Part shown: positions 8,247-20,524 of the stretch, one piece after another | Layout: each line of letters opens with the position of its first letter | How positions within the stretch are numbered: position 1 is the first letter of the stretch | Virus record (IMG/VR): IMGVR_UViG_3300003583_000001 | Location: 9,943 to 73,942 of that record | DNA from: a virus | Reading direction: 5' to 3' (one strand) | Length of the DNA: 64,000 nucleotides | Notes under the pieces: generated by a model | The model's database searches: none | What the model was told of the DNA's origin: nothing | What the model saw: only the letters and a program-made list of their open reading frames with translations | Position numbers and translations under genes: made by a program

Positions 8247-8422
8247 TCCTCAATACAAATCTCCTTATGAATCTCATAACGGTAACCGTCGGCTGCTCGC
8301 CAAGTGTGCTTGACCGTATGCTCCAACATTGACAGATTGTCAGTGTCATAGTCTTGCTTTAACACCTGACGCTCTCCAGCTTTAGTACGCTTGTCTGTTT
8401 TGTAAATCTCTACAGTAAGCAT
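8234..8422 (-). CDS. hypothetical protein
   Basis: ORF track; SD AGGAG upstream. Confidence 0.65.
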   Translation of the reverse strand: MLTVEIYKTDKRTKAGERQVLKQDYDTDNLSMLEHTVKHTWRAADGYRYEIHKEICIEECVE

Positions 8423-8432
8423 TGTCTTCTCC

Positions 8433-8651
8433 TTATGAACGAATGCCGTGTTCTGCTGCTAACTCAGTTCCGTTGAACAGAGTGAAGCCATCCACATCGT
8501 TGATAGCAACCATCACTTCGAGGTCGATACCAGCTTTGGTACGAACGCTCTCAATGCGACCCCTACCAAGAGGAGTATCGATGAAGTTGCCTTCGGCACC
8601 CCAAAGGTCTTCCATGAAGGTCTTCATCTCAGGAGAAATAGTCTTGGTCAT
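8433..8651 (-). CDS. hypothetical early protein
   Basis: MTKTISPEMK... with SD AAGGA, directly downstream of the early promoter. Confidence 0.7.
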   Translation of the reverse strand: MTKTISPEMKTFMEDLWGAEGNFIDTPLGRGRIESVRTKAGIDLEVMVAINDVDGFTLFNGTELAAEHGIRS

Positions 8652-8679
8652 CTGTCTTCCTTTCATTCTCACTATACTT

Positions 8680-8708
8680 AATATAGCAACTCTGAAGACA
8701 AATGTCAA
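8680..8708 (-). promoter_or_regulatory. sigma70-type early promoter, repeated family
   Basis: TTGACA-17nt-TATATT with an upstream A/T tract. Confidence 0.85.
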
Positions 8709-8736
8709 GAGTTATTTTCACTTTTTTCAAAAAAAA

Positions 8737-8812
8737 TGGTGCTGCCACGAGGATTCGAACCCCGGACCTGAGGTTTACAAAACCCCTGCTCTACCGACTG
8801 AGCTATAGCAGC
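8737..8812 (-). tRNA. tRNA-Thr(UGU)
   Basis: GCTGCTATAGCTCAGTCGGTAGAGCAGGGGTTTTGTAAACCTCAGGTCCGGGGTTCGAATCCTCGTGGCAGCACCA; cloverleaf with encoded CCA. Confidence 0.95.
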
Positions 8813-10074
8813 TTAATATTCATATGTGTTAGCATATCGTTTGCTAGGTCACGAAACCAAACGCTATCGTGACCTCGTGTAGTCTCAGCGGCTGTCCCAA
8901 TACGAATACCACTTGTTTCTACAAAAGAGCGTGGATCGTTAGGCACACCATTCTTATTCACTGTGATGCCCTTTGCTTCAAGCATATCTGCTGCATCTCG
9001 ACCAGAACGATTCGTCCCACTGAGATTTAGCAAAACGATATGAGAGTCTGTACCACCAGTCTGTACGTTCATACCTCTGTTAGTGAATACATTACACATC
9101 ACTCTAGCGTTATGAATAACCTGCTGGCTGTATAGTTTAAAGTCATCAGTGTTAGCCTCAATGAACGCTTGTGCTTTTGCAGCAATCATATTCATCAGAG
9201 GTCCGCCCTGTGTGCCAGGAAATATAGCGCTATTTATTTGCTTCGTATAAGATGGGCGGTTCCATAGAATGATGCCGCCTCTGGGACCACGAAGCGTCTT
9301 ATGAGTTGTGCTTGATACTACGTCAGCAAAATCACATGGGTTTTCATAGGCACCACCTGCAATCAAGCCAGAGTAGTGAGCCATATCTACGAATAGATAA
9401 GCGCCAACACTGTCTGCAATCATCCGCATTGCTTCCCAGTCGATTTGTCGAGGATAAGCACTCGCACCAGCAACAATCATCTTTGGCCTGAACTGACCAG
9501 CCTTATCAGATACCTCTTGGTAATCGATGAAGCCATTCTCGTCCACACCATATGAATGTGCTTTGTATATTTTTCCTGAAGCAGTCATTGGCGCACCATG
9601 AGTTAGATGTCCGCCAGAAGCAAGGTCCATACCGAGGATCGTATCACCCGGTTTTAGGAATGCTTGATATACAGCCATGTTAGCATTAGCGCCAGAGTGC
9701 GGCTGTACGTTAGCATACTCACACCCATAGAGTTCTTTCAGTTGGTCAATCGCCAACTGCTCAATCGAATCCATATGCTCACAGCCGTTGTAATAACGCT
9801 TGCCTGGATAACCTTCCGCATACTTGTTTGTAAAGACGCTACCACAGAGTTGCATAACAGCATCACTAGCAAAGTTCTCACTAGCAATCAACTCAATCGT
9901 ATCATTTTGTCTAGTAACCTCACTTGATAAAATTTTATTGACCCTACTGTCAATTCCTGTACCGTGATACATTTCATCTCCATTATCTCTCATAAAGTCC
10001 CAATGCGACAATCGTTTTTCGTTCATTTTAATAGCATTCCAATAAACAGTTAGTAGATCATTATACTTTATCAT
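8803..10074 (-). CDS. glyA: serine hydroxymethyltransferase
   Basis: ELIASENF, NKYAEGYPGKRYY, SSTTHKTLRGPRGG (PLP lysine), GGTDSH, SGIRIGT. Start may be at a downstream Met. Confidence 0.97.
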   Translation of the reverse strand: MIKYNDLLTVYWNAIKMNEKRLSHWDFMRDNGDEMYHGTGIDSRVNKILSSEVTRQNDTIELIASENFASDAVMQLCGSVFTNKYAEGYPGKRYYNGCEHMDSIEQLAIDQLKELYGCEYANVQPHSGANANMAVYQAFLKPGDTILGMDLASGGHLTHGAPMTASGKIYKAHSYGVDENGFIDYQEVSDKAGQFRPKMIVAGASAYPRQIDWEAMRMIADSVGAYLFVDMAHYSGLIAGGAYENPCDFADVVSSTTHKTLRGPRGGIILWNRPSYTKQINSAIFPGTQGGPLMNMIAAKAQAFIEANTDDFKLYSQQVIHNARVMCNVFTNRGMNVQTGGTDSHIVLLNLSGTNRSGRDAADMLEAKGITVNKNGVPNDPRSFVETSGIRIGTAAETTRGHDSVWFRDLANDMLTHMNIKLL

Positions 10075-10246
10075 TATAACTATTCACAAATTTGTGGGCT
10101 AGTGATTCATTGTCATATTTATATTTTACAGCAAATTCTGTGTTGGAATTTTTATGATGAATCCAAATTTCATATCCATCATTATCAAGGTCATGAACTC
10201 TTGCAAATCCATCACGTTCATTCGAGGGCATTTTTGCAACCAACAT
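10061..10246 (-). CDS. hypothetical protein
   Basis: ORF track; SD GGAG. Confidence 0.6.
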   Translation of the reverse strand: MLVAKMPSNERDGFARVHDLDNDGYEIWIHHKNSNTEFAVKYKYDNESLAHKFVNSYNDKV

Positions 10247-10267
10247 AAAAACGACTCCAACAGAAAA

Positions 10268-10294
10268 ATAGAGGGGAGAACAACTCCCCTCTAT
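10268..10294 (-). terminator. intrinsic terminator
   Basis: Stem ATAGAGGGGAG/CTCCCCTCTAT followed by a T run on the - strand. Confidence 0.8.
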
Positions 10295-10302
10295 ATATCA
10301 CG

Positions 10303-10680
10303 TTAGAATTTAACTGAGGTTGTGAACCCCACAAAAGTATCTTGATATGCAGCGTCACCATCTGTCGTCATTTTAACATATGGCGTTACACCAACATTAA
10401 ACAATTCCAAATTGTATCCAGCTTCAAGTTCAACGCCGGTCAATTCAAACTCATCAACAAGTACTGTTGGCGTTACACCAACATAAATATTATTCCAATC
10501 GACGGTTGCGCTAGGCTCTGCTGTGATTGTGCCTGCATCGATTGCATATGCTACATCATTGCTGAGTGTAAGACCGAGACCATATGGCAATAGACCGCCT
10601 TCTGGTGCTGCTTCGCCATCTGCTAGTGCAGGCGAAGCAAGAAATGCTGTAACTGCTACAGCGGCTAGTAGCTTCTTCAT
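10303..10680 (-). CDS. small exported outer-membrane beta-barrel-like protein
   Basis: Sec signal MKKLLAAVAVTAFLASPALA, alternating beta-strand pattern, terminal Phe (GFTTSVKF). Confidence 0.7.
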   Translation of the reverse strand: MKKLLAAVAVTAFLASPALADGEAAPEGGLLPYGLGLTLSNDVAYAIDAGTITAEPSATVDWNNIYVGVTPTVLVDEFELTGVELEAGYNLELFNVGVTPYVKMTTDGDAAYQDTFVGFTTSVKF

Positions 10681-10704
10681 TTATTTGACTCCTTTAAAGT
10701 TAAA

Positions 10705-10965
10705 AATGACAGGAAGGTCCGAAGACCCCTTCTGTTTCCAAGCGTCCTGTCCCGCTCATAAGAATTATGCTGCTAGAGCATATTCCTGAGAAACGAAATT
10801 ATCGTTTGCATTTAGTTTGTTTTAGTCATATCGTGACCAATCGGTAACTCCAGTCCTCTATTATCTGCATGTCGAAACCTGTTTCGCCCCCATAAGGTTT
10901 ATGGTGGAGGCGTCCGGTACTGCCCCGGAGTCCATTACAGTTTTCAATTTCCTTCATCGTTACTT
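10705..10965 (-). ncRNA. ssrA: circularly permuted (two-piece) tmRNA; tag (A)ANDNFVSQEYALAA
   Basis: Acceptor piece ...CCGGGGCAGTACCGGACGCCTCCACCA ends at 10902; 10-nt spacer; 5' end GGGGGCGAAACAGGTTTCGAC at 10891; 7-bp acceptor stem with G3-U70; tag frame 10809-10765. Outer limits approximate. Confidence 0.95.
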
Positions 10966-11001
10966 CTGTATATATCTAATCCCAAAAGACTAGATATATA
11001 A

Positions 11002-11700
11002 CTATTTCTCTAGCATCTTTCTCTTGAATGCTAACCAACCAATGAATCGTTTTTCAAACCACCACTCAAGGTCTTTATATTTCTTGAACTGCTGGTCAAA
11101 TCCAGTAGGATCAAACGATGGCTTGGGATTGCGAACGTTTGTGCCAGGAATAATTTTGTTCGTGGAATACTTAGCATATTGCTTTTTACCCATAATCTTC
11201 TGCACGAACTCAGGCATATCCAATAGATAGTAGTATTCAGCATCCATTATGATTTCATTTTCTATCTTTTTGTTAGGCCAGTCGTGCTTGTATAGAGGTT
11301 TCAATTCATCAGGTCGAATGTCACGATTACTACCCAAATCTATCACATTAGGGCTCCAGTGAATAGTGAAGTTCTCTGGAGGAATTACCATGTGAAGTTC
11401 ACCAAAGATTGAGCTACCTCTTGGTATATGTGTGCAAAAGATAGGGTTTTTAATATCCATAGACAACAGCAGCTTTTGCTGATCAGCCATATCAGCACCA
11501 CCACGGGCAATCCCATCTGCTCTGGTAGAAGTAACCTTGTCTAGCAATCCTTTATATTTCTTATTGAATGACCGATAGAGAATAAACTCGTTCCTGACAG
11601 GTTTTAGCAATCTGATTGCCTTTTTGACCCTATTTTCCATATGGTCGATCTGTCTTGCACTGATAACATCTTCATTTAGGTATGACTTAAATGTTAGCAT
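11002..11700 (-). CDS. hypothetical protein with capsid-targeting-like N-terminus (MLTFKSYLNE)
   Basis: Start moved to ATG 11700, next to the alt stop; leader resembles T4 internal-protein leaders. Confidence 0.7.
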   Translation of the reverse strand: MLTFKSYLNEDVISARQIDHMENRVKKAIRLLKPVRNEFILYRSFNKKYKGLLDKVTSTRADGIARGGADMADQQKLLLSMDIKNPIFCTHIPRGSSIFGELHMVIPPENFTIHWSPNVIDLGSNRDIRPDELKPLYKHDWPNKKIENEIIMDAEYYYLLDMPEFVQKIMGKKQYAKYSTNKIIPGTNVRNPKPSFDPTGFDQQFKKYKDLEWWFEKRFIGWLAFKRKMLEK

Positions 11701-13875: not shown

Positions 13876-13883
13876 TATTTATA
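13876..13883 (-). promoter_or_regulatory. T4 late promoter upstream of alt
   Basis: TATAAATA on the - strand. Confidence 0.75.
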
Positions 13884-20158: not shown

Positions 20159-20524
20159 TTATCTCCTCATCTTTGCTAGTGCTTCAGCATCTTCAGTAGA
20201 AAACACTGGAACCATATTACTCTTGTGCATCGTTGCAATACCAAGTAGCTTACGCTTACCACTATATTGCATAGGTTCTTTTTTCGGTGCCACACCAGTT
20301 GGAATTTGATTAGAAAGCGTGGTGGGCCCGGCAGGATTCGAACCTGCGACAACGCCGTTATGAGCGGCGGGTTCTGACCGCTGAACTACAGGCCCGTTAT
20401 ATCCCATCTTCTTGAGAAACTTTGCATGAGCAGCATCTGTTTGTTGCTGCTTCTTTGACTTCTTCTGTTTTCGCTTCTTCGTACTCGTTGTACTGAAGTA
20501 AGCTGGAAGCATATGCATCGACAT
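20159..20524 (-). CDS. basic hypothetical protein with an in-frame embedded tRNA
   Basis: SD GAGGAG; promoter upstream; C-terminal YSG..LLGIATMHKSNMVPVF...A.MRR motif recalled from T4-like phage hypothetical proteins. Confidence 0.75.
   Translation of the reverse strand: MSMHMLPAYFSTTSTKKRKQKKSKKQQQTDAAHAKFLKKMGYNGPVVQRSEPAAHNGVVAGSNPAGPTTLSNQIPTGVAPKKEPMQYSGKRKLLGIATMHKSNMVPVFSTEDAEALAKMRR
20320..20395 (-). tRNA. tRNA with CAU anticodon, most likely tRNA-Ile2 (lysidine type)
   Basis: GGGCCTGTAGTTCAGCGGTCAGAACCCGCCGCTCATAACGGCGTTGTCGCAGGTTCGAATCCTGCCGGGCCCACCA; G1-C72 pair (not initiator); resembles bacterial Ile2 tRNAs. Confidence 0.88.

Follow-up and report, generated by a model that had tools for sequence, protein, structure and literature searches.

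The locus considered here is from an IMG/VR contig of an uncultured marine T4-like phage (73.9-kb, 39.6% GC), of which a stretch of 64,000 nucleotides, here termed the window, was analysed. Two genes on the minus strand of that window run one into the other. These are glyA (8803-10074), whose longest open reading frame (ORF) is 423 aa, and, downstream, a gene for tRNA-Thr(UGU) (8737-8812), which is 76 nt in length, includes an encoded CCA, and is found both by ARAGORN and by Rfam. The last 10 nt of glyA (8803-8812, minus strand), that is, are also nucleotides 1-10 of the tRNA. As read on the minus strand, glyA ends ...CAT ATG AAT ATT AAG CTG CTA TAG, and what is shared is the last base of Lys421, followed by Leu422, Leu423, and the stop codon, with the TAG in question (8803-8805) supplying U8-A9-G10 of the tRNA, i.e., its nt 8-10. 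This 10-nt overlap, with the stop lying inside of the tRNA, had been claimed in the initial annotation of this DNA, and the coordinates prove to be exact, as the minus-strand letters, the ORF, ARAGORN, and Rfam all agree. The arrangement thus is one of a coding sequence that is found upstream, on the same strand, and with its stop within the mature tRNA, which likewise is the case in five other contigs (L001-L005).

The tRNA involved looks to be a functional one. Its score against Rfam RF00005 is 68.8 bits versus a gathering score of 29, so that two independent methods place it above threshold, and it folds into a full cloverleaf. Comparison among relatives reveals compensatory changes at stem pairs 3-70, 28-42, and 51-63, and these three pairs indicate that structural selection is acting on tRNA-Thr. 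Pair 3-70 changes from U-A to C-G between two lineages, which turns the penultimate codon of the overlapping gene from Leu to Pro. As this covariation alters the protein, the bases of the overlapped protein tail are dictated by the tRNA rather than by the protein. Folding of the glyA 3' end together with the tRNA gave no competing structure (with an uninformative z-score, -1.7).

The sequence U8-A9-G10 is near-universal in tRNAs, and an ORF that enters a tRNA in the frame used by glyA therefore stops at a TAG. In a sample of 42 distinct tRNA contexts, for which ORFs with at least 50 codons upstream of the tRNA were counted, 12 ORFs are listed as extending into the tRNA; 11 of these stop at the U8-A9-G10 TAG, while for the twelfth, at a tRNA-Ala (L094), the overlap is a single base. 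Candidate ORFs of 58-67 codons, found between tRNAs in the tRNA clusters of unrelated phages (L095 1792-1866 and L097 1805-1878, both in reverse-strand coordinates), also stop at a TAG consisting of nt 8-10 of a tRNA-Met. Within the contig itself TAG is an ordinary stop, ending 9 of 56 long ORFs. Given that usage, along with a next TAG that is found just 3 codons on, reassignment of TAG or its read-through at the end of glyA could be ruled out.

The SHMT protein and its C-terminus

The glyA product matches Pfam SHMT (PF00464, 4.3e-147) across profile positions 4-396 of 399, making this coding sequence Pfam-A positive, i.e., a real gene rather than a spurious ORF. Against solved bacterial SHMTs it scores 467 bits with the PLP-lysine motif, TTHKTLRGPRGG, aligned, and the alignment with 5vmb and 3gbx spans residues 42-414, THKTLRGPRGG included. 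Judged by these matches, the window protein is a full-length fold-type I PLP domain with its Schiff-base lysine motif.

Residue 414 (of 423) of the window protein aligns with residue 386 (of 417) of E. coli GlyA (1dfo), and only 9 residues remain beyond that point. The last helix of bacterial GlyA, corresponding to E. coli residues about 387-417, consequently is absent, with ~22-25 C-terminal residues missing versus E. coli. The enzyme had been described initially as stopping short of its usual end, a description which holds as far as the missing helix is concerned, but the tRNA is not the reason, since 75 of 75 more distant phage SHMTs lack that helix as well. As the helix is missing from every one of the 80 phage homologues fetched from IMG/VR, the short C-terminus is best viewed as a trait of the clade, one that is unrelated to the tRNA. 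This marine phage SHMT clade, consisting of the window protein plus those of L001-L080, has lengths of about 379-390 aa. The 75 more distant members end with WFRxLAxKIxxILx and then a stop, and relative to them the window protein is ~4 residues longer (Ile-Lys-Leu-Leu). Overlap with the tRNA, on this comparison, lengthens the enzyme rather than truncating it, the enzyme apparently having run on into the tRNA.

At its other end, the longest ORF probably overstates the gene. The ATG at 9972 is preceded by GGAG, at a 5-nt spacing, and corresponds to the start of the other phage SHMTs; it probably is the true glyA start, for a protein of 389 aa. Residues 1-34 of the longest ORF instead look like in-frame remnants of resident ORFs which have been displaced from this position.

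Relatives of the locus and the cassette swap

Searching IMG/VR with the SHMT protein yielded 80 loci (L001-L080). The five contigs noted above, L001-L005, possess an identical 10-nt overlap along with identical junction bases, and do so at 95-96% aa and about 97% DNA identity to the window, i.e., as one shallow population. The other 75 glyA loci, at 70-76% aa identity, have their own stop ~4 codons earlier, and a downstream tRNA was found at none of these 75 (for 74 of which at least 150 nt of downstream flank was present). GenBank phage DNA provided no close relative, with distant SHMT and generic tRNA-Thr matches only, and a search anchored on the next gene downstream, which encodes 72 aa, encountered tRNA-Thr at that position only in the same narrow clade.

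An assembly error had been named at the outset among possible refutations, and five independent contigs with the identical overlap serve to exclude it. More generally, an artefact, whether an assembly or sequencing error that removed the stop or instead a tRNA that is a pseudogene, is highly improbable. Support for it was not found, six independent assemblies share the same junction bases, and the tRNA has its cloverleaf, its encoded CCA, its 68.8 bits in Rfam, and its compensatory substitutions.

Relatives without glyA were recovered by searches with the tRNA sequence and with a 61-aa ORF that is found upstream of glyA (10061-10246, minus strand). These glyA-less relatives share with the window a tmRNA, a 125-aa ORF, and the 61-aa ORF to one side, and tRNA-Thr, a promoter, and the 72-aa ORF to the other. 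By blastn, identity of the flanks is 92-94% for L090 and L091, and 78-84% for L089. The left flank is collinear with these sister contigs from window position 11001 to about 10120, with a break that falls within the 61-aa ORF, i.e., in its 3' part at about 10115-10132. Homology on the right resumes exactly at tRNA nt 1 (8812). Since homology with the sister contigs is lost within the 61-aa ORF and regained from tRNA nt 1 onward, glyA can be seen as a cassette which has replaced resident ORFs.

What occupies this position otherwise varies. In L089-L091 there is, in place of glyA, a 226-236-aa ORF, a 66-aa ORF, and a 63-aa ORF. The latter, which ends ...LQLKSPL, has no stop of its own but instead ends on the tRNA's TAG, and does so with the same 10-nt overlap. 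A 54-aa homologue of this 63-aa ORF in L081 keeps the same frame with respect to the tRNA, yet has a TAA before it, and the spacer that follows matches the last codons of the window's glyA at 6 of 8 bases. The small ORF resident before tRNA-Thr in L081 and L089-L091 appears to survive in the window as a remnant, in frame, at 9973-10026 (minus strand; MNEKRLSHWDFMRD...), where, by protein alignment, residues 17-30 of the glyA ORF (MNEKRLSHWDFMRD) align with that small ORF's N-terminus. An ArfA-like identity of the 63-aa sister ORF was considered and ruled out, its sequence being acidic and without a PHROG match. Between the conserved 61-aa ORF and tRNA-Thr there thus is a hypervariable cargo slot, found at ~8812-10130 in the window, where the window's clade has glyA, and in relatives at L089 1293-2377, L090 3274-4343, L091 3514-4598, and L081 2300-2654, this last with the 66-aa and 54-aa ORFs only.

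The initial annotation had proposed checking for the overlap in related phages, and the answer is a divided one. It is identical in L001-L005, and 9 of the 10 contigs that have the tRNA-Thr locus retain an overlap, but in L081 the stop, a TAA belonging to a different ORF, lies 8 nt upstream of the same tRNA. As that TAA precedes the same tRNA, the overlap is dispensable. With two cargo ORFs making use of the tRNA-embedded stop, and with overlap in those 9 of 10 contigs, selection for the arrangement could also fit. The overlap-bearing contigs are all close relatives, however (in the glyA group, about 97% identical in DNA), and for that reason neutrality versus selection is not something which these contigs allow to be measured.

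With a probability of roughly 0.6, we view the overlap as a tolerated by-product of modular gene exchange beside a tRNA gene. The slot between the 61-aa ORF and tRNA-Thr holds interchangeable cargo in this phage lineage, and in the window's lineage a glyA cassette has displaced most of the small resident ORFs, with its left junction in or after the 61-aa ORF. The 3' junction is no more than about 8 nt from where the tRNA begins, the base-exact site not being fixed, and it is there that glyA's own stop was lost. Translation then would run for four extra codons (Ile-Lys-Leu-Leu) through what formerly was spacer, ending at U8-A9-G10 of the tRNA.

Transcription, processing, and rescue of the glyA message

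What such an overlap means for the message depends upon whether glyA and tRNA-Thr are transcribed together. On the minus strand, from 9982 to the tRNA, a sigma-70-like promoter with at least 9 of 12 matches is not present, nor did a scan find a terminator-like site between glyA and tRNA-Thr. In light of that lack of a sigma-70-like promoter, co-transcription is the simplest reading. Upstream of the unit that consists of the 61-aa ORF, glyA, and tRNA-Thr is a terminator-like hairpin (10268-10294, minus strand; 11 bp, 6 GC, with a T-run after). Directly following the CCA of the tRNA, there is an A/T-rich tract and an early-type sigma-70 promoter (8680-8736, minus strand; TTGACA-17-TATATT, 11 of 12 matches, with TG). 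This promoter, with hexamers at 8708-8680, is predicted to drive the next small gene, i.e., the 72-aa ORF (8433-8651, minus strand). The tRNA plus T-run was considered as an intrinsic terminator as well and rejected, as the scan found none and as the T8 is a part of the conserved A/T element that lies upstream of this family of promoters.

At least eight near-identical early promoters of this family are found in the contig, each TTGACATTTG...AATGCTTATATT with a 17-nt spacer and with a conserved upstream A/T-rich tract, TTTTTTTGAAAA...AATAAC. Their first hexamers are at 8708, 14574, 16898, 17327, 25081, 28562, 30660, and 31927 on the minus strand, and two begin right after a tRNA CCA, i.e., those of tRNA-Thr and of tRNA-Asn. 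The 72-aa ORF is found in other genomic contexts too. Thus, in L183 (2444-2719) it is present at 96% identity within a different neighbourhood, with a different promoter, and with no tRNA, and a metatranscriptome contig of a relative skips this gene altogether (with a joint of 8434 to 8691). In these respects the gene behaves like a small mobile promoter-plus-gene unit.

A different possibility is that message and tRNA are largely uncoupled, with the tRNA supplied mainly by another transcript, e.g., from an unrecognised internal promoter or from a middle or late promoter in the 3' part of glyA, or else with the glyA message mostly ending or decaying prior to the tRNA, such that few non-stop mRNAs would result. 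The scan for promoters sees only sigma-70-like sites, and so promoters of the T4 middle type would be missed by it; the strong terminator at 10268-10294 obscures what it is that drives glyA; and there is a late-type box, TATAAATA, at 10116-10123. To be weighed against these points is that the minus strand from 9982 to 8812 yielded no promoter-like site, and that none resembling a terminator lies between glyA and the tRNA. A transcript which spans the full glyA ORF, moreover, includes tRNA nt 1-10 at the least, as the tRNA starts inside of that ORF. The contig's other tRNAs in addition follow ORFs at a distance of 8-12 nt, whether at the end of an early unit or in its interior, with tRNA-Asn 12 nt and tRNA-Arg 8 nt behind ORF stops and with tRNA-Asn also preceding an early promoter. 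Uncoupling consequently is rather unlikely. The most economical view, as inferred from the arrangement of these genes, is that tRNAs of this phage are embedded in early mRNAs, be it at an end or in the interior, and that glyA and tRNA-Thr are co-transcribed.

The box TATAAATA, which is the late-promoter box of T4, is found at 13 sites in the window versus 4.5 expected, with 0 of 100 shuffles reaching 13, and its sites are mostly on the minus strand, e.g., 10116-10123 and 13876-13883. As a late promoter for glyA specifically, the 10116-10123 site was rejected, since of 5 close relatives just 1 retains it, and since the other glyA loci do not have it upstream. Four RNA runs were compared with 8300-11100, of which a contig, X17 (8767-9051), bridges the glyA/tRNA junction, though as an assembled contig, i.e., one that conveys neither ends nor strands nor single transcripts. 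A metatranscriptome contig from the source study covers 9748-10967, this too being assembled, with DNA carry-over possible.

A second tRNA of the contig is found within protein-coding sequence in its entirety. This is tRNA(CAU), at 20320-20395, which is nested in frame in a 121-aa ORF (20159-20524, minus strand) of PHROG 27048. The frame is open in 80 of 80 IMG/VR relatives of this ORF, of which 19 have one or two tRNAs at the same linker position (Met, Pro, Ala, Trp+Ile, or Met+Pro), and the rest, without a tRNA, have there a variable peptide linker. As tRNA(CAU) is read in frame within the 121-aa ORF, translated mRNA and tRNA precursor share transcripts in this phage group.

Assuming co-transcription, two fates for the glyA message may be envisaged. 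On a co-transcript that is unprocessed, ribosomes would terminate normally at the UAG, unfolding the acceptor and D arms of the tRNA as they do so. If the tRNA instead has folded, then host RNase P would cut at tRNA nt 1, leaving a glyA mRNA that ends ...AUU AA and is without a stop. Ribosomes in transit at that time would be rescued by tmRNA-SmpB, of host or phage, with the mRNA decaying from its 3' end and with a tagged product predicted to end ...THMNI followed by Ala and then the tag. Limitation of the life of the glyA mRNA, by this account, would be a side cost of the tRNA's position rather than the action of a purpose-built switch.

A phage-encoded candidate for that rescue is present. 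The window has a permuted, two-piece tmRNA gene of the alphaproteobacterial type (10674-11005, minus strand), as found by ARAGORN and by Rfam (RF04321 at 106 bits and RF01849 at 91.5 bits), with the tag ANDNFVSQEYALAA. It is on the same strand as the overlap and 1.9 kb upstream of it. In L024, L035, and L044-L046, a tmRNA also adjoins glyA, and glyA there ends at a stop of its own with no tRNA following. As these overlap-free relatives as well carry tmRNA beside glyA, there is no specific link between the phage tmRNA and the overlap; the tmRNA would be a rescuer, should glyA mRNA lose its stop, but not an overlap-specific one. Permuted tmRNA genes of this type are common among these phages (the window; L024, L035, and L044-L046; L089-L091), often at 0.5-2 kb from glyA and to either side, and tags among them include ANDNFVSQEYALAA, ANDNFVSQEYALVA, ANDNAFIEDYALAA, ANENFALAA, and ANESYALAA.

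These same elements could be viewed as a timer that has been selected for. An early gene's stop, that is, would have been placed within a tRNA such that RNase P makes a non-stop mRNA and the phage tmRNA tags SHMT for proteolysis, thereby giving a short window of expression and linking tRNA output to mRNA death. All six of the glyA-bearing contigs with the tRNA have the overlap, and the sister contigs' ORF uses the same tRNA stop; there is the phage tmRNA, with its ...YALAA degron-type tag, 1.9 kb upstream and on the same strand; and the contig's second tRNA too is within a translated ORF. In L081, though, the stop comes ahead of this tRNA, a further 75 phage glyA genes end at a stop of their own and lack the tRNA, tmRNA is beside glyA in relatives that are without the overlap, and the overlapped tail (IKLL or SPL) is set by tRNA covariation, with conservation that is shallow. 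A selected timer is, on balance, unlikely. More speculative still is a broader version, in which the 5' end of tRNA-Thr serves as a fixed module boundary that comes with a ready stop, providing an RNase P-coupled expression timer for whichever early cargo is present, with tmRNA doing the clearing and tagging. The tolerated by-product of gene exchange, as set out above, remains the reading that we prefer.

Comparison with known systems

Overlaps of this general kind have been surveyed in bacteria, where they are rare. Hudson, Lau and Williams (2014; Front Microbiol 5:421) counted 250 same-strand overlaps with an upstream CDS per 115,660 t(m)RNA genes, across 2031 bacterial genomes, and viewed these as candidates for high-frequency non-stop mRNAs that stem from few evolutionary events and are found in closely related genomes (PMC4131195). 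Among their examples are a Helicobacter FtsW/RodA-family CDS that runs into tRNA-Ile(CAU) and, in Carsonella, smpB running into ssrA (PMC4131195). At the level of sequence, the glyA/tRNA-Thr overlap belongs to this class, i.e., a Pfam-positive CDS is followed on its own strand by a valid tRNA, its stop is within that tRNA, and RNase P maturation is predicted to remove the stop. That survey, however, was of bacteria only, whereas here the bearer is a phage that has its own tmRNA. Also different is that the origin of the overlap here is traced to a cassette swap, and that in the sister contigs another ORF ends at this tRNA's TAG. The literature, when searched for phage genes with a stop inside of a tRNA, provided nothing specific. 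What this case adds is a traceable cassette-swap origin at a tRNA boundary, a single tRNA stop that serves alternative cargo genes, and the correction regarding the enzyme's C-terminus.

If the chain of events from co-transcription through rescue is true, then each glyA-tRNA-Thr transcript would be either translated to a proper stop or matured into tRNA. The locus in that case would be a natural source of high-frequency non-stop mRNA in a phage with its own tmRNA, supplying a concrete substrate to the question of why phages encode tmRNA. Its value at present is mainly descriptive, i.e., that of a metabolic gene cassette which has been grafted at a tRNA boundary, and where the conserved U8-A9-G10 of the tRNA by default provides two different genes upstream of it with a stop codon.

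The tRNA nested in the PHROG 27048 ORF is a likeness from the same contig (20159-20524), as there too a tRNA sequence is read also as codons. That tRNA, though, is inside of its ORF as a whole, with the frame open through it, whereas glyA shares with its tRNA only nt 1-10 and the tRNA supplies the stop.

Programmed production of a non-stop message is illustrated by arfA, the mRNA of which, according to work cited in PMC4131195, is cleaved by RNase III. Alike in the two cases is an endonucleolytic cut upstream of the stop that results in a non-stop mRNA which is subject to tmRNA, though for the phage this is a prediction. ArfA differs in being a small rescue factor, with a truncated product that is active and a cleavage site that is conserved family-wide, while the product of phage glyA is a metabolic enzyme. 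No comparable family-wide arrangement is seen for the latter, as in 75 of the 80 phage homologues glyA carries a stop of its own with no tRNA after it, and as the stop of L081 comes before the tRNA.

Separation of an mRNA from a following tRNA is known in turn from secG-leuU of E. coli, in which RNase P separates the two by cutting once, at the 5' end of the tRNA (Mohanty and Kushner, NAR 36:364; PMC2241853). The half-life of that co-transcript is under 30 s, and the released mRNA, despite a 14-nt spacer, is degraded in <30 s by 3' exonucleases (PMC2241853). The likeness is that of an mRNA and then a tRNA on one transcript, for the phage presumably so. The difference is that secG keeps its stop, along with that 14-nt spacer, whereas the phage spacer is -10 such that the cut would remove the stop. 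As secG-leuU mRNA decays rapidly even though it has its own stop, a -10 overlap probably costs little more than a short spacer would, and an overlap such as that of glyA with tRNA-Thr may be tolerated for this reason.
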